Source of the DNA: a virus
Lineage: Duplodnaviria; Heunggongvirae; Uroviricota; Caudoviricetes
Virus record (IMG/VR): IMGVR_UViG_2913157538_000006
Reading direction: 5' to 3' (one strand)
Length of the DNA stretch: 11,227 bases
A program made the position numbers and the translations under genes. Each line of letters begins with the position of its first letter. The stretch's first letter is position 1. This document shows positions 1,757-8,320 of the stretch, piece by piece. Under the pieces are notes generated by a model. The model did no database searches and had not been told where the DNA came from. It saw only the letters and a program-made list of their open reading frames with translations.

Positions 1757-1795
1757 TGATCTTACCCAGCAATAGTGGACACGCGGCTAAGTGAG
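1757..1795. repeat. IS3 left terminal inverted repeat
   Basis: TGATCTTACCCAGCAATAGTGGACACGCGGCTAAGTGAG matches the reverse complement of the right end at about 30 of 39 positions (aligned by eye). Confidence 0.8.
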
Positions 1796-1821
1796 TAAAC
1801 TCTCAGTCAGAGGTGACTCAC

Positions 1822-2121
1822 ATGACAAAAACAGTATCAACCAGTAAAAAACCCCGTAAACAGCATTCGCCTGAATTTCGCAGTGAAGCCCTGAAGCTTG
1901 CTGAACGCATCGGTGTTACTGCCGCAGCCCGTGAACTCAGCCTGTATGAATCACAACTCTACAACTGGCGCAGTAAACAGCAAAATCAGCAGACGTCTTC
2001 TGAACGTGAACTGGAGATGTCTACCGAGATTGCACGTCTCAAACGCCAGCTGGCAGAACGGGATGAAGAGCTGGCTATCCTCCAAAAGGCCGCGACATAC
2101 TTCGCGAAGCGCCTGAAATGA
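1822..2121 (+). CDS. insE: IS3 OrfA (transposase N-terminal, HTH DNA-binding part)
   Basis: ATG at 1822 is preceded by GAGGTG (1810-1815). Product is 99 aa ([32 protein letters not shown] ...) with a leucine-zipper-like C-terminus. The ORF track begins at an upstream GTG (1813); the ATG is the more likely start. Confidence 0.88.
2084..2088 (+). other. Candidate programmed -1 ribosomal frameshift site (A-AAG) for the OrfAB transposase
   Basis: In the orfA frame the codons read CAA AAG (2083-2088). The -1 frame is open from here into orfB. IS3-family frameshifting at A-AAG or A-AAA-AAG motifs is established knowledge; this exact site is inferred, not demonstrated. Confidence 0.5.
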
Positions 2122-2984
2122 AGTATGTCTTTATTGAAAAACATCAGGCTGAGTTCAGCATCAAAGCAATGTGCCGCGTGCTCCGGGTGGCCCGCAGCGG
2201 CTGGTATACGTGGTGTCAGCGGCGGACAAGGATAAGCACGCGTCAGCAGTTCCGCCAACACTGCGACAGCGTTGTCCTCGCGGCTTTTACCCGGTCAAAA
2301 CAGCGTTACGGTGCCCCACGCCTGACGGATGAACTGCGTGCTCAGGGTTACCCCTTTAACGTAAAAACCGTGGCGGCAAGCCTGCGCCGTCAGGGACTGA
2401 GGGCAAAGGCCTCCCGGAAGTTCAGCCCGGTCAGCTACCGCGCACACGGCCTGCCTGTGTCAGAAAATCTGTTGGAGCAGGATTTTTACGCCAGTGGCCC
2501 GAACCAGAAGTGGGCAGGAGACATCACGTACTTACGTACAGATGAAGGCTGGCTGTATCTGGCAGTGGTCATTGACCTGTGGTCACGTGCCGTTATTGGC
2601 TGGTCAATGTCGCCACGCATGACGGCGCAACTGGCCTGCGATGCCCTGCAGATGGCGCTGTGGCGGCGTAAGAGGCCCCGGAACGTTATCGTTCACACGG
2701 ACCGTGGAGGCCAGTACTGTTCAGCAGATTATCAGGCGCAACTGAAGCGGCATAATCTGCGTGGAAGTATGAGCGCAAAAGGTTGCTGCTACGATAATGC
2801 CTGCGTGGAAAGCTTCTTTCATTCGCTGAAAGTGGAATGTATCCATGGAGAACACTTTATCAGCCGGGAAATAATGCGGGCAACGGTGTTTAATTATATC
2901 GAATGTGATTACAATCGGTGGCGGCGGCACAGTTGGTGTGGCGGCCTCAGTCCGGAACAATTTGAAAACAAGAACCTCGCTTAG
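2118..2984 (+). CDS. insF: IS3 OrfB (transposase catalytic DDE domain; normally expressed as an OrfAB fusion)
   Basis: 288-aa ORF in the -1 frame relative to orfA, with ATGA overlap at 2118-2121. Contains an integrase-like catalytic core (WAGDITYL ... [10 protein letters not shown] ... [13 protein letters not shown]). Confidence 0.88.
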
Positions 2985-3014
2985 GCCTGTGTCCATATTA
3001 CGTGGGTAGGATCA
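2976..3014. repeat. IS3 right terminal inverted repeat
   Basis: Reverse complement TGATCCTACCCACGTAATATGGACACAGGCCTAAGCGAG pairs with the left end. Confidence 0.8.
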
Positions 3015-3847: not shown

Positions 3848-5179
3848 ATGAATAAAGCAATAAAAGTATCATTGTATATATCTTTTGTTTTGATTATTTG
3901 CGCCTTATCTAAAAACATAATGATGTTAAATACATCTGATTTCGGAAGAGCCATTAAGCCATTAATTGAAGACATACCAGCATTTACATATGACTTACCT
4001 TTATTGTATAAATTGAAAGGTCATATTGATTCAATTGATAGCTATGAGTATATAAGTTCATATAGTTATATTTTGTATACATACGTCCTGTTTATTAGCA
4101 TTTTTACTGAATATCTTGATGCTAGGGTGTTATCGTTATTTCTAAAAGTAATATATATTTATTCATTATATGCGATATTTACTTCATATATAAAAACAGA
4201 AAGGTATGTAACTTTATTTACATTCTTTATTTTAGCTTTTCTTATGTGTTCTTCATCAACACTGTCAATGTTTGCATCATTCTATCAAGAGCAAATAGTT
4301 ATAATTTTCCTTCCATTTTTGGTGTATTCATTAACATGCAAAAACAATAAATCTATGCTTTTGCTATTTTTTTCGTTGCTAATAATATCTACTGCTAAAA
4401 ATCAATTTATATTAACCCCACTAATAGTGTATTCATATTATATTTTTTTTGATAGACACAAACTAATTATTAAATCTGTAATATGCGTGGTGTGCTTGCT
4501 TGCGTCAATATTTGCAATATCTTATTCAAAAGGTGTTGTTGAATTAAATAAGTACCATGCAACATACTTCGGTAGTTATCTTTATATGAAAAACAACGGG
4601 TATAAAATGCCATCGTATGTTGATGATAAGTGTGTTGGGTTAGATGCCTGGGGTAATAAATTCGACATATCATTTGGCGCAACCCCAACAGAAGTTGGAA
4701 CGGAATGTTTCGAATCTCATAAAGATGAAACGTTTTCGAATGCACTCTTTTTATTGGTTAGCAAACCAAGCACCATCTTCAAACTTCCATTTGATGATGG
4801 TGTGATGTCTCAGTATAAAGAAAATTATTTCCATGTATATAAAAAACTACACGTAATATATGGAGAATCAAACATACTAACGACTATTACTAACATAAAA
4901 GACAATATATTTAAAAACATTAGATTTATATCATTGTTATTATTTTTTATTGCTTCTATTTTTATTAGAAATAATAAAATAAAGGCATCTTTATTTGTAG
5001 TATCTCTTTTTGGAATATCTCAATTTTATGTGTCATTTTTCGGGGAAGGATATAGAGATTTAAGCAAGCATTTATTTGGAATGTATTTTTCGTTCGACCT
5101 TTGCTTATACATAACAGTCGTTTTTTTAATTTATAAAATAATTCAAAGAAATCAAGACAATAGCGATGTAAAGCACTAA
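3848..5179 (+). CDS. yfdI: Serotype-specific O-antigen glucosyltransferase (GtrS-type polytopic membrane protein)
   Basis: 443-aa strongly hydrophobic, AT-rich ORF with multiple membrane spans and a larger soluble segment. Third gene of a gtr cassette, with ATGA overlap to gtrB at 3848-3851. The symbol is the recalled K-12 locus name. Confidence 0.82.
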
Positions 5180-5187
5180 GTTTAAAT

Positions 5188-5209
5188 TGCGCGCCAATCA
5201 TGGCGCGCA
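5188..5209. terminator. GC-rich hairpin immediately after gtrS (possible bidirectional terminator)
   Basis: TGCGCGCC (5188-5195), 6-nt loop, GGCGCGCA (5202-5209): a perfect 8-bp stem 9 nt past the gtrS stop. There is no clear T-run on the plus strand; a short A/T-rich run follows on the minus strand. Confidence 0.35.
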
Positions 5210-5477
5210 CAAGCTATAATACCAACCTAATTTCTCCTCCTCTTAGAGTGACTATATCTCCTGATAGAATTGCGGTATTGACTATCAAATGCCCTGATTC
5301 GTTGTTTATTGTAATATCTCCTCTATCTGCAGACGATAACTTAAATGCATCATTGCCCACAACAAACCCCCTCCAGAACCAAGTGCTGATATTATCATCA
5401 ACAGTGATAGATACATATACTAACTGATTATCGTTATAAGTGATTCCTGTCTTATACTTAACATAAGGACTTCCACT

Positions 5478-5822
5478 TTGATTCTCGATAGACACATAAC
5501 ATCCAGGGGTTATGTTTGTATGCGTCCCGCGACTATCGCCCCATTAACGCCATACGATAAATGGGATGGTGAGAAATGGGTGACGGATACCGAGGCACAG
5601 CATAGCGTCGCAGTAGATGCAGCAGAAGCACAGCGCCAGTCGCTGATTGATACTGCAATGGCTTCCATTAGTCTGATTCAACTGAAATTACAGGCTGGGC
5701 GGAAGCTGATGCAGGCAGAGACCTCCCGACTTAACACTGTGCTGGATTACATTGACGCGGTGACGGCAACAGATACCAGCACCGCGCCGGATGTCATCTG
5801 GCCTGAACTGCCGGAGGAGTAG
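5478..5822 (+). pseudogene. tfaS: Tail fibre assembly protein fragment (C-terminal part only)
   Basis: The C-terminal roughly 90 aa (... PLTPYDKWDGEKW ... LDYIDAVTATDTSTAPDVIWPELPEE) resemble the C-terminal half of phage Tfa/gpU-type proteins and parallel the C-terminus of the convergent yfdK product (DTSSAPDIEWPTPP). The expected N-terminal motif (MxYxYSATTN) is absent. Confidence 0.72.
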
Positions 5823-6234
5823 GCCATTCAATATCTGGCGCACTGGAAGTATCGACCAGCTCCAGTGCGTCCAGATAATCCAGCCACAAATTATATTGCG
5901 CCAGTTCCTCACCTTTCAGACGACCAATAGCCGCTTTACCAGCCCATTGTTTACTGTTCATATAATCGTTGGCCTGATTAATCAATTGCTGCTTTTTCAG
6001 TTCGGCTGCAGCAATCTGTTCCTCATGTGTTGGTGGTGGAATTTCAGACCATGCAGGAAAACCATTTTCTCCAGCGATACGGATTTTTCCTTTCGGCGGT
6101 AATCCGGAAAACTCAATATACACTTGCTCATCAACTTCAACAGCATCATCTGGCCATGAGCCAGCTTGCGTGTAATCCTCTTTCATCTCCAAGGGATAGA
6201 AAGAGTTTGTAGTCGCGGAATATATGTAATTCAT
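5794..6234 (-). CDS. yfdK: Tail fibre assembly protein (Tfa/gpU family)
   Basis: 146 aa, beginning MNYIYSATTNSFYPLEMKEDYTQAGSWPDDAVEV, with GGAG about 7 nt upstream of the ATG at 6234. Lies directly downstream of the tail-fibre fragment on the same strand. Confidence 0.88.
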   Translation of the reverse strand: MNYIYSATTNSFYPLEMKEDYTQAGSWPDDAVEVDEQVYIEFSGLPPKGKIRIAGENGFPAWSEIPPPTHEEQIAAAELKKQQLINQANDYMNSKQWAGKAAIGRLKGEELAQYNLWLDYLDALELVDTSSAPDIEWPTPPAVQAR

Positions 6235-6260
6235 TTTTCACTCCATAAAGTTAAAAGAAA

Positions 6261-6779
6261 TTAACACCCTAATGCGAAAAATGAAGCACCGATACCGGGT
6301 ACGCCTGCTCTGGAAATAAATTTCACCGGGTCCTGGTTATAACCGGCACAAGCTATATAGCCAACATTTGCACTGCCGGGAGTGTAATCCTGAGTCGCAA
6401 ATACCCGCAGACATCTATTCGGAAATGCAATCGGAAAATAGGTTACTGTGTCCTGAGACGTCAGCGGAACATCAATTGGCCCCCATTGAATAATTAAACC
6501 GGATGGCAATTTTTGATATCCAGGAACTGAAGCAGAAAGCATAAAACTACCCATATCAGGTATCTGATTCGCCCCTGTCCCTACATTTCTTTTAGCCGCT
6601 TCTCCCAAACCAAGGTTTTCGAGAGCCTTTTGCACCGTGCCGTCCAATTTGATATCGCCAAACGGATTCTTGCGGCTTAACAGCAGCGCACGAAGCGCGG
6701 TAAGCAGCTGGTCATGCCGCCCCTTCTCCAGGCTGGCACCGGAGGCCTCCACAACGCTGCAAAGCTCCTCCTGCAACAT
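6261..6779 (-). pseudogene. yfdL: Tail fibre protein C-terminal (receptor-binding) fragment
   Basis: 172 aa from an internal Met. The same frame is open further upstream to 6983 with no plausible RBS at 6779, so this is the 3' end of a once larger gene. It is followed by a tfa gene, as in Mu S-U, P2 H-G and e14 stf-tfa pairs. Confidence 0.68.
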
Positions 6780-6828
6780 GTCAAAGTAGTCATCATCCAG
6801 ATCGGTGGCAGGCGTGCCGGTCTGGGGG

Positions 6829-7104
6829 TTACCACGGGTACGGGGGATTACCAAAGGCAGCACCTTTAAGCTCCGCAAGACGTTCTGACCAGTCATGCGC
6901 CAGCGCGTTGTCTTCCGCAGTGTAATACGCGGCACATTTGGCGTTATCACCATCAGTAAACAGATCCAGAACAAACGGGCCAAACAGGGTGTTAATTCCC
7001 CAGAAAATGTTGTCCGGCGTGCGCCACTGATCGCCCACTTCCTTCAGTTCATGGGCTGGTTTGTTCCGCAGCTCCACCAGCGCCTGGCAATATTTATTAC
7101 TCAT
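6829..7104 (-). pseudogene. yfdM: Phage Dam-type N6-adenine DNA methyltransferase, N-terminal fragment truncated just after the NPPY motif
   Basis: Product ends ... [12 protein letters not shown] then stop. NPPY is the catalytic motif IV of N6-adenine methyltransferases, which normally sits mid-protein. Start taken at the Met whose ATG overlaps the yfdN stop (TAATG at 7102-7106); the ORF track extends to an upstream start at 7137. Confidence 0.72.
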
Positions 7105-7598
7105 TAAGCCCCCACGTAATTCCCTGAGAGATACCACTCTTCACCTGATGCAGCCCGCTTACTGCTTTTCCGTAAACACCGTTCACGACGCGCCAGAAAA
7201 TTGTTTCGTTCTGGCTGGGAGTGGCTTTCACGGAATGCCGCCATCCACACCGTTGCAGCACGACGGTATAAGCCCCTGGACTCCAGTTCTTCCGCCTGGC
7301 GGGTCAGGCACAAAATCACCCGCGGGTCGTTAGTGCCGACATAGAAATTGCGCACAGGTCTGGTTTCACGAACTGGTTGTGGTTCCGGATCCTGCGCTCT
7401 CTCAGTCAGGCGCGGGAAATGTCTGTGTGTATCTCCTTCACAACGGTGAGCCACACGCCCACTCTGACGTAACTTGCTTGCTGACTGCAGAACGCGCTGC
7501 CGTGAGTAACCTGCAAAAGCATCCGCAATGTCTCCGGAAGTACAGCCCGGATGGGCTTCAATGAATTTCTGAACGTCATTCAAAAGACTCATGCTCAC
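7104..7598 (-). CDS. yfdN: Hypothetical prophage protein with a PerC-like C-terminal region
   Basis: 164-aa ORF. The segment AEELESRGLYRRAATVWMAAFRESHSQPERNNFLARRERCL resembles the GLWRRAA..W core of PerC/Pch-type regulators as I recall it; this is unverified. Start is ambiguous: GTG at 7598 (AGGA 8 nt upstream) or ATG at 7592. Confidence 0.75.
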   Translation of the reverse strand: MSMSLLNDVQKFIEAHPGCTSGDIADAFAGYSRQRVLQSASKLRQSGRVAHRCEGDTHRHFPRLTERAQDPEPQPVRETRPVRNFYVGTNDPRVILCLTRQAEELESRGLYRRAATVWMAAFRESHSQPERNNFLARRERCLRKSSKRAASGEEWYLSGNYVGA

Positions 7599-7963
7599 CC
7601 CCTGAATCCTGCCGGGATCTGGCTGTAGTCCACATTGTCGTAACTGGCTTTGAAGTACGGGTCTTCGCGTTTTTCTGTGTACGTGCTGACGGACGGCGAT
7701 AAGCGCAGGGAAAGCTCATCCCATTTTTCCCGCAGCTTCGACGGGCTGAGCACGTTACGGCACCAGAACGGATCGCGGCTGACGCGGCTGTACATCTCGC
7801 AGATTTGTTTGTGAGTACGACCATCCTGCACACACATCAGGCGAATTTCGTTTGCCCAGGCTGTCCAGTTCGGTTCTTTGGGACGAACCACCTCGCCGTC
7901 ACATTCGGCGGCCTGCTCGTACAGGGCGATGATTTTTTTCCAGAGCCACTGTGCGCAGGTCAA
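7595..7963 (-). pseudogene. yfdO: Replication initiator (lambda O-like) C-terminal fragment; frame open upstream through the iteron array
   Basis: 122 codons from a TTG at 7963. The same frame has no stop between 8455 and 7598 and no ATG/GTG/TTG upstream of 7963. The O-like assignment is recalled annotation supported by the embedded iterons, not by a search. Confidence 0.65.
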
Positions 7964-8087
7964 ATCATCCTGCGTTCCCCACTGGCGCTTTTTAGGGCTG
8001 AATACAACCGCATCAGGATGGCGAGTTAAAAAATCCTGTTCATCCGTCTGCGTGTCCGGTTGCGAAGCGTCCGGACGAGAAGGTTTT

Positions 8088-8240
8088 TTATCTGACGGAT
8101 CATGTTTTGATTTTACTGACGGATCCCCGCCAGATTCTGACGGGTGAAAACCCGATTTTTTGCCAGATTTCGACGCATCAAATTTTGACGGGTCAGATTT
8201 TGATGCGTCAGATTTTGACGGGTCAGAGTCTGACAGTTGA
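8088..8240. repeat. Iteron-like direct repeat array (about 8 copies, 15-bp period)
   Basis: Five tandem 15-mers at 8166-8240 (GATTTCGACGCATCA, AATTTTGACGGGTCA, GATTTTGATGCGTCA, GATTTTGACGGGTCA, GAGTCTGACAGTTGA), preceded by three more copies with TGACGG cores at 8093, 8117 and 8138. Confidence 0.75.
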
Positions 8241-8320
8241 GAAAATGCCGCTGCCTGAAGCTTCGCAACGTTAAGCTGATAAACATTCGACGCATTGCGG
8301 TTATGATGAGGAGCAGCAAA

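Follow-up and report, generated by a model that had tools for sequence, protein, structure and literature searches.

The stretch of DNA analysed here (the window; 11,227 nucleotides, IMG/VR record IMGVR_UViG_2913157538_000006) is the CPS-53/KpLE1 cryptic prophage of E. coli K-12, which it matches at 100% identity from intS to torI; the sole difference between the window and strain ER1709 is a 1,261-bp insertion at 1757-3013. All genes of the window are known CPS-53 genes, and the RefSeq annotation of the same DNA gives them in the order intS, yfdG, yfdH and yfdI (gtrABC-type), yodE, a tfa pseudogene "missing N-terminus", yfdK, a gp53-like gene (yfdL), yfdM (dam fragment), and yfdN onward. An Rfam scan of 4900-7300 matched no family, and a promoter and terminator consensus scan of 5100-7200 gave counts not above those of shuffled sequences. 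The features between the gtr genes and yfdN are the following.

5214-5543, minus strand: 3' fragment of a tailspike/tail-fibre gene of P22 type, C-terminal ~105 codons, convergent with gtrC/yfdI
5214-5360, minus strand: yodE, last 48 codons of the tailspike frame, encoding the toxic peptide of the RyeG mRNA (RefSeq annotation; Pfam YodE, E 5e-36)
5478-5822, plus strand: open reading frame of 114 aa
5532-5822, plus strand: tfaS, last 96 codons and stop of a 200-codon tfaE-type tail-fibre-assembly gene, U' of the old segment; native start absent
5794-6234, minus strand: yfdK, complete tail-fibre-assembly gene (U), cognate to the variable part of yfdL; open reading frame of 146 aa
5794-5822, no strand assigned: 29-bp overlap of the convergent tfa 3' ends, from the reading-frame coordinates
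6261-6896 (PGAP start) or 6261-6983 (mechanical open reading frame, 240 aa), minus strand: yfdL, short fibre gene with a foreign N-terminus
6261-6599, minus strand: variable part of yfdL (Sv), receptor-binding C-terminal domain of gp53-like type
6600-6625, plus strand: orphan 26-bp Pin-type (pix) crossover site TTCTCCCAAACCAAGGTTTTCGAGAG, inside yfdL at the Sc/Sv boundary, encoding (A)LENLGLGE
6626-6840, minus strand: constant part of yfdL (Sc), intact fibre codons 22 to ~93
6838-7104, minus strand: yfdM, N-terminal fragment of a phage Dam methyltransferase gene, with the deletion junction to the fibre gene at 6838-6840

Invertible fibre segments have been recognised as a class since the 1980s. 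The geometry in Mu G (Gin), P1 C (Cin) and Salmonella Hin is Sc-site-Sv-U / U'-S'v-site, and their 26-bp site consists of two 12-bp inverted half-sites and a 2-bp core. An earlier interpretation of the window (the sequence-only reading) had proposed that the two convergent tail-fibre-assembly genes and the adjacent fibre gene are the relic of such a host-range segment.

The plus-strand product proved to be related to Tfa proteins, as that reading had held, and is an N-terminally truncated member of the Caudo_TAP family (PF02413), matching profile positions 34-131 of 131 (E 7e-25, 88 bits, Pfam); PGAP likewise records tfaS, at the same coordinates, as a pseudogene missing its N-terminus. The start proposed for this gene, 5478, had to be corrected, being the first TTG of a mechanical reading frame and lying in unrelated DNA. 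The left breakpoint of tfaS is 5531/5532, and DNA homology to e14, SfIV, phage vB_EcoM-720R4 (720R4) and the prophage of E. coli strain 4973 (NZ_CP103468, L002) begins at 5532 in every case. The retained part is 94% identical to residues 105-199 of TfaE from both e14 and strain 4973. On the minus strand, YfdK matches positions 2-130 of the same profile above the gathering score (E 2e-39, 135 bits, Pfam), a full-length match which agrees with its reading as a complete Tfa protein; it also falls in PHROG 188, tail fiber assembly (E 1e-67), and is 97% identical to the Tfa protein of strain 4973. Transcription of yfdL and yfdK takes place as part of the yfdONMLK operon, which SrsR activates, and deletion of yfdK results in a higher sensitivity to H2O2 (PMC9181523, PMC3105296).

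The open reading frames bear out the proposed 29-bp overlap of the two 3' ends. An identical overlap is found from the annotated coordinates in e14, strain 4973, SfIV, 720R4 and O157 AR-0428, which makes it an ancestral trait of this segment family rather than an accident of K-12. The C-termini of the two Tfa proteins are indeed related (38% identity over 72 aa, E 7e-13), so that the diverged inverted repeat described previously stands at the protein level, whereas at the DNA level it is weak: the last 223 nt of the two arms are 51% identical (~3 sd more than in codon shuffles), with 18 nt at 83% as the best arm.

YfdL had been taken for a C-terminal fragment of a tail fibre. Judged by its alignment, it is instead an almost complete short fibre preceded by 19 foreign N-terminal residues: its residues 20-211 correspond, at 97% identity, to residues 22-213 of the 213-residue fibre of 720R4, with 192 of the 213 residues retained. 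The C-terminal domain Gp53-like_C occupies residues 158-240 of the 240-aa reading frame (E 5e-18, Pfam). Fibre homology stops at 6840, and 6841-6983 is dam-gene DNA read in another frame, of which 6841-6896 (PGAP start) or 6841-6983 (mechanical reading frame) supplies the foreign, out-of-frame N-terminus. The adjacent yfdM matches positions 3-69 of 169 of the Pfam Dam profile and is recorded by PGAP as a pseudogene missing its C-terminus. The origin of this junction is evident from comparison with 720R4 (ON470603), where the window positions 5532-6840 and 6838-8303 match record positions 313-1621 and 26455-27920, both at 98% identity. The comparison yields a 24,833-bp deletion with a 3-bp overlap, which fuses fibre codon 22 to the dam fragment and which took out all the DNA from the middle of dam to fibre codon 21, with the genes for lysis, head, tail and baseplate. 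The 720R4 record itself starts exactly at the tfaE start codon.

The boundary between the two parts of yfdL is marked by the sequence TTCTCCCAAACCAAGGTTTTCGAGAG, an exact match that occurs once in the window with 0 expected by chance, and that is identical in e14 stfP, strain 4973, SfIV, SfV and 720R4. This 26-bp site in yfdL is overlapped by the 16-nt core CCTTCTCCCAAACCAA, which has been reported to be the inversion repeat of e14 (PMC12529663). The crossover site, which lies in frame in yfdL, divides the fibre gene into a constant and a variable part: in an alignment of seven elements the constant side is near-identical and the variable side diverges at once. The constant part of yfdL is 94% identical at the DNA level to e14 stfP over 6591-6840 and 95% identical to SfIV over 6552-6840, whereas no DNA similarity to e14 is found over 5972-6590, though the flanks match, and it picks up again at 6591.

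Perfect conservation of the 26-bp site in phages lacking pin could reflect coding constraint on the LENLGLGE motif alone, and it says nothing on current recombination activity.

In strain 4973 and in e14 the segment is flanked by two inverted 26-bp sites, namely TTCTCCCAAACCAAGGTTTTCGAGAG in the fibre gene and TTCTCCCAAACCAACGTTTATGAAAA on the pin-proximal side. The crossover-site search suggested by the sequence-only reading returned the site at 6600-6625 and no second site in the window, either by IUPAC pattern or by a half-site pair scan allowing up to 7 mismatches over the 20 specified half-site positions. Its remark that an invertase and a second variable fibre exon are lacking also held: tblastn of the whole window with PinE from e14 and strain 4973 gave nothing below E = 6.8, and tblastn for the invertase, the silent fibre exon (S'v) and the TfaE N-terminus gave nothing below E = 1. 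Of the two convergent cassettes expected, one is complete (yfdL Sv and yfdK), and the other consists of 96 codons of tfa' with S'v absent. With one site and no local invertase the switch is unable to invert locally. In known systems the Fis-dependent recombinational enhancer lies in the 5' part of the invertase gene, and since that gene is absent we presume that the enhancer was lost along with it. Only half of a phage host-range DNA-inversion switch is left in the region, namely a single fibre cassette and an orphan crossover site, without an invertase. Because the invertase, the second site and the second cassette are missing, the CPS-53 element is a remnant rather than a member of the invertible fibre segments, related by likeness and descent to the e14 P / Mu G / P1 C class.

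The DNA to the left of the segment, previously described as AT-rich at about 5500, is the minus-strand 3' fragment of a tailspike gene and encodes YodE. Its frame is open from 5543 to 5214, and the product can be aligned over its whole length with the C-terminal 106 residues of a 520-aa tail fibre from the podovirus vB_EcoP_P64441 (36% identity, E 1e-19, BLASTP). An exhaustive HMMER search found this domain solely at the extreme C-terminus of proteins of 519-862 aa, whose N-terminal domains are P22 Head_binding in the best match (P0004, E 8e-66), Tail_spike_N in two others (P0008, P0011) and Phage_tail_fib, the N-terminus of tail-collar fibres, in another (P0017). The 5214-5543 product thus belongs to the P22-type tailspikes by C-terminal homology to proteins with a tailspike N-terminal or head-binding domain. 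The best match is the last gene of a P22-like prophage, after gp16 and Mnt/Arc. P22-like phages have a tailspike gene convergent with their gtr/int module, and the topology of the window is likewise, with intS-gtrABC running toward the tailspike fragment. A word-indexed protein search with the fragment returned short YodE-like fragments only, the full-length tailspikes being reached by HMMER, and a locus search with it found no genomes beyond the K-12 type. The 352 bp from the yfdI stop to 5532 are confined to 364 K-12-type genomes.

The tailspike fragment is DNA that took over the left half of the segment and is no part of the invertible segment itself. The minus-strand reading frame 5214-5495 was considered as the missing S'v and rejected, because it lies on the wrong strand, is unrelated to stfE-type exons and belongs to the tailspikes. 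The toxic small protein YodE can be traced to a tailspike of P22 type, of which it forms the in-frame C-terminal tail; this points to its evolutionary origin and may be more useful than the switch finding; in the Grad-seq paper characterising RyeG/YodE, a term search for "tail fib" gave no occurrence.

Megablast of 5100-7200 gave partial matches in 3,537 of 5,426 complete E. coli genomes, and the K-12 arrangement, counted where at least 80% of this interval is present, in 361. Relatives with the missing half were also found. The prophage of strain 4973 has the order pinE (minus strand), S'v as a silent promoterless exon (172 aa, plus), tfaE (200 aa, plus), tfa (146 aa, minus), fibre (213 aa, minus), ymfQ and baseplate genes. 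The window is colinear with it over 5532-6840 at 90% identity, and there this stretch lies inside a complete Mu-like tail module. The same layout is seen in e14, where ymfQ, stfP and tfaP are followed by the convergent tfaE, stfE and pinE, and a contiguous pinE-S'v-tfaE block occurs in ~598 E. coli genomes. The expected geometry (Sv-U / U'-S'v), as well as the presence of pin and a second variable exon in intact relatives, is borne out by these two elements, which carry both. In O157 AR-0428 the gp53-like Sv and the YfdK-like Tfa are on the pinE side, and the constant part is fused instead to the exon that goes with the TfaE-like chaperone. Compared with strain 4973 this is the flipped isomer, and the cassette type therefore occurs in both orientations relative to pin.

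A pin-less state is found in two serotype-converting Shigella phages. In SfIV, gtrIV is followed by an IS, a truncated tfa' (174 codons kept, ~26 lost at the IS) and then the convergent tfa and fibre genes, with no pin; in SfV, tfa leads through a terminator directly to gtrV, and tfa' is wholly lost. Viable phages thus tolerate the pin-less relic state. Since the SfIV genome is described as that of a complete phage, a phage can lose the invertase side and stay viable, and the loss need not be a product of decay in K-12. This loss probably predates the decay of the prophage, having arisen when the gtr module replaced the pin side.

The CPS-53 stretch is very probably the frozen remnant of an invertible tail-fibre host-range switch of e14 type (Pin/P-segment), an interpretation which supports that of the sequence-only reading, whose underlying observation is also confirmed. 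The ancestor would have been a temperate myovirus of the SfV / vB_EcoM-720R4 type, combining a lambdoid early region with a Mu-like tail. A 26-bp site in the short fibre gene would have separated the constant 5' part Sc from the variable 3' part Sv, with the chaperone gene U after Sv; on the convergent side would have stood the second chaperone gene U', the promoterless exon S'v, the second inverted site and the serine invertase gene pin. Inversion would have exchanged the pair of Sv and chaperone fused to Sc. In the CPS-53 lineage, an int-gtrABC O-antigen-modification module would then have taken the place of the pin side, leaving the junction at 5531/5532. With this replacement the first 104 codons of U' would have been lost together with S'v, the second site, and pin with its enhancer, and the 3'-terminal ~105 codons of a tailspike gene of P22 type would have come in with the module. 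In the simplest reading the replacement went via illegitimate recombination inside tfa', and its result would be a fibre locked in the yfdL-yfdK orientation. The 24.8-kb deletion from dam to fibre codon 21 would have followed later, taking out lysis, head and tail genes. This scheme starts from observed features, namely the anatomy with its breakpoints, the orphan site, and the relatives that are intact or flipped. We infer the order of events and the illegitimate-recombination mechanism, and the replacement step is deduced from its end states because the analysis turned up no direct ancestor that combines a gtr module with an intact pin segment. Independent truncations of like kind are present in the gtr phages SfIV and SfV.

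A different view would be that two convergent chaperone genes are the usual, never-invertible arrangement in this group and that tfaS decayed in place. This is consistent with functional SfIV, which has a fibre gene, tfa and a convergent tfa' without invertase, and with the 29-bp overlap, which is kept wherever the tfa pair occurs. However, full-length tfaE with an inspectable upstream region (strain 4973, e14, O157 AR-0428) is always preceded by a fibre exon that starts at the site, in a segment bounded by pin. Moreover, the tfa' of SfIV is itself cut by ~26 codons at the IS, SfV has no tfa', and the exact crossover site is kept in the fibre genes of SfIV, SfV and CPS-53. We consider this view very unlikely, and the pin-less state of SfIV, raised as a normal arrangement, refines the relic interpretation without refuting it. 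An origin of the tfa pair by local inverted duplication within CPS-53 could account for the related C-termini and the weak DNA inverted repeat, but the two proteins are just 38% identical to each other, the arms 51% identical at the DNA level, and each protein has a distinct orthologue of its own in other prophages, at 94-97% identity. The distinct orthologues refute such a duplication, whose probability is close to nil.

The arrangement of the region in present-day genomes also bears on whether the orphan site could still be active. The CPS-53 arrangement is invariant: it is present in the 361 genomes defined above, and the CPS-53-specific Sc/dam junction in 359 genomes. These ~360 genomes are all in one orientation, with no inversion isomer among the 5,426 genomes, all of them assembled consensus sequences in which rare subpopulation events could go unseen. 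We nevertheless considered that the yfdL site might be live and that PinE, PinQ and PinR in trans might recombine it with the e14 stfP site, CPS-53 being a distant third cassette of the e14 switch. The 26-bp sites in yfdL and stfP are identical and, by coordinate arithmetic, are inverted relative to each other on the MG1655 chromosome (~1,207,778 and 2,471,883), ~1.26 Mb apart; all three of these K-12 invertases are known to invert the e14 segment in trans (PMC12529663). Yet the predicted recombinant junction, built by joining e14 Sv to the CPS-53 Sc/dam sequence, occurs in 0 of the 5,426 complete genomes, and the Sc/dam junction is always contiguous with the yfdL Sv. A published BLAST survey queried with CPS-53 also found inversions in e14 only and none in CPS-53 (PMC12529663). 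An inversion between these sites would, furthermore, span the terminus asymmetrically. Invertases of the Hin/Gin family need a Fis-bound enhancer and a defined supercoiled synapse, requirements that strongly disfavour sites a megabase apart. An active yfdL site is accordingly extremely unlikely. If it were live, it would imply rare megabase inversions or an exchange of fibre cassettes between two cryptic prophages, and CPS-53 would be a hidden third cassette of the e14 switch, a switch recently linked to T2 defence.

The interpretation of the region as a frozen half-segment explains the lone convergent tfa pseudogene in K-12, and shows how, in SfV-like phages, gtr modules displace the side of a host-range switch that carries the invertase. 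With the yfdL site, the K-12 chromosome also has a third copy of the Pin crossover site that had gone unremarked. In K-12 the genes are already annotated, pseudogene status included, and the scar is an ordinary one. Literature searches (yfdK/tfaS/yfdL; e14 with SfV and invertible; CPS-53 with invertase) yielded no paper describing CPS-53 as half of a P segment or its orphan site. The half-segment nature of CPS-53 and its orphan site are an incremental annotation point, of little significance beyond tidy annotation.

Among the known systems, the e14 P segment shares with CPS-53 the constant part of the fibre gene (94% at the DNA level), the identical 26-bp site at the Sc/Sv boundary, a tfaE-type chaperone (94% at the amino acid level), the 29-bp tfa overlap and, in intact relatives, the position of a short fibre gene (~210 aa) after ymfQ-type baseplate genes. 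CPS-53 differs from e14 by the absence of pinE, stfE, the second site and 104 tfaE codons, and its Sv and the N-terminal half of its chaperone represent a different cassette without DNA similarity over 5972-6590. The prophage of strain 4973 has the identical set of Sv, U and U' cassettes at 90% identity within an intact pin-bearing segment, and 720R4 is 98% identical across 5532-6840, yfdM-yfdN and yfdP-yfdS. Unlike CPS-53, both possess a full set of morphogenesis genes and show no gtr module or tailspike fragment, and the strain 4973 prophage has pinE and S'v. The Shigella serotype-converting phages SfIV and SfV resemble CPS-53 in the int-gtrABC genes convergent on fibre/tfa, the constant part (92-95% DNA identity), the identical 26-bp site and the lack of an invertase, and SfIV also retains a truncated convergent tfa'. 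These phages differ in being viable, in having another Sv and chaperone, and in lacking the tailspike fragment and yodE; their truncation points are also different from that of CPS-53, being at tfa' codon ~27 beside the IS in SfIV, with no tfa' in SfV. The Mu G, P1 C and Hin systems have the same segment geometry and 26-bp site type as the proposed ancestor of the CPS-53 segment, whereas they involve other fibre families and all of them retain an invertase with its internal enhancer.

The complete tail-fibre-assembly (chaperone) gene yfdK consists of two parts that differ in their relationship to e14, the K-12 prophage with an intact pin invertible segment. The C-terminal ~59 codons (window 5794-5971) have 88% DNA identity to e14 tfaP, whereas the N-terminal ~88 codons (5972-6234), together with the variable part (Sv) of the fibre, share no DNA identity with e14. 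This split suggests that the N-terminal half of the chaperone co-varies with the fibre tip in this family.

Two further features of the window involve the gtrABC-type module and a second tail gene:

1757-3013, insertion annotated as an IS3 element, splitting yfdH (gtrB)
5214-5543, minus strand, 3' fragment of a tailspike or tail-fibre gene, with yodE inside at 5214-5360

The inserted length in yfdH is 1,261 bp, which would fit IS3 (1,258 bp) plus a 3-bp target duplication. Complete genomes with the same insertion allele number 55, among them C600, RV308, GM4792 and NEB Turbo, suggesting that the window comes from a K-12 derivative of the C600/RV308 type.

YodE, a toxic protein of 48 aa, is the product of the RyeG RNA. 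It is the C-terminal end, read in frame, of a P22-type tailspike or tail-fibre gene that has been truncated, and this gene probably arrived together with the gtr module. A search of the Grad-seq paper characterising RyeG/YodE for the term 'tail fib' gave no match.

Comparison with phage vB_EcoM-720R4, 98% identical to CPS-53, revealed two clean deletions in the prophage. The first, at window 6838-6840, has removed 24,833 bp reaching from dam up to fibre codon 21, its two ends overlapping by 3 bp, and the second, at 8302-8303, has removed ~3.2 kb between replication gene O (yfdO-like) and yfdP, cI included. Another decayed prophage, that of E. coli O157 AR-0428 (NZ_CP044145 11782-20417), retains the whole pin segment, here as the opposite isomer. 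Its fibre gene of 264 aa adjoins fragments of replication genes, a deletion scar that parallels the yfdL/dam junction of CPS-53.
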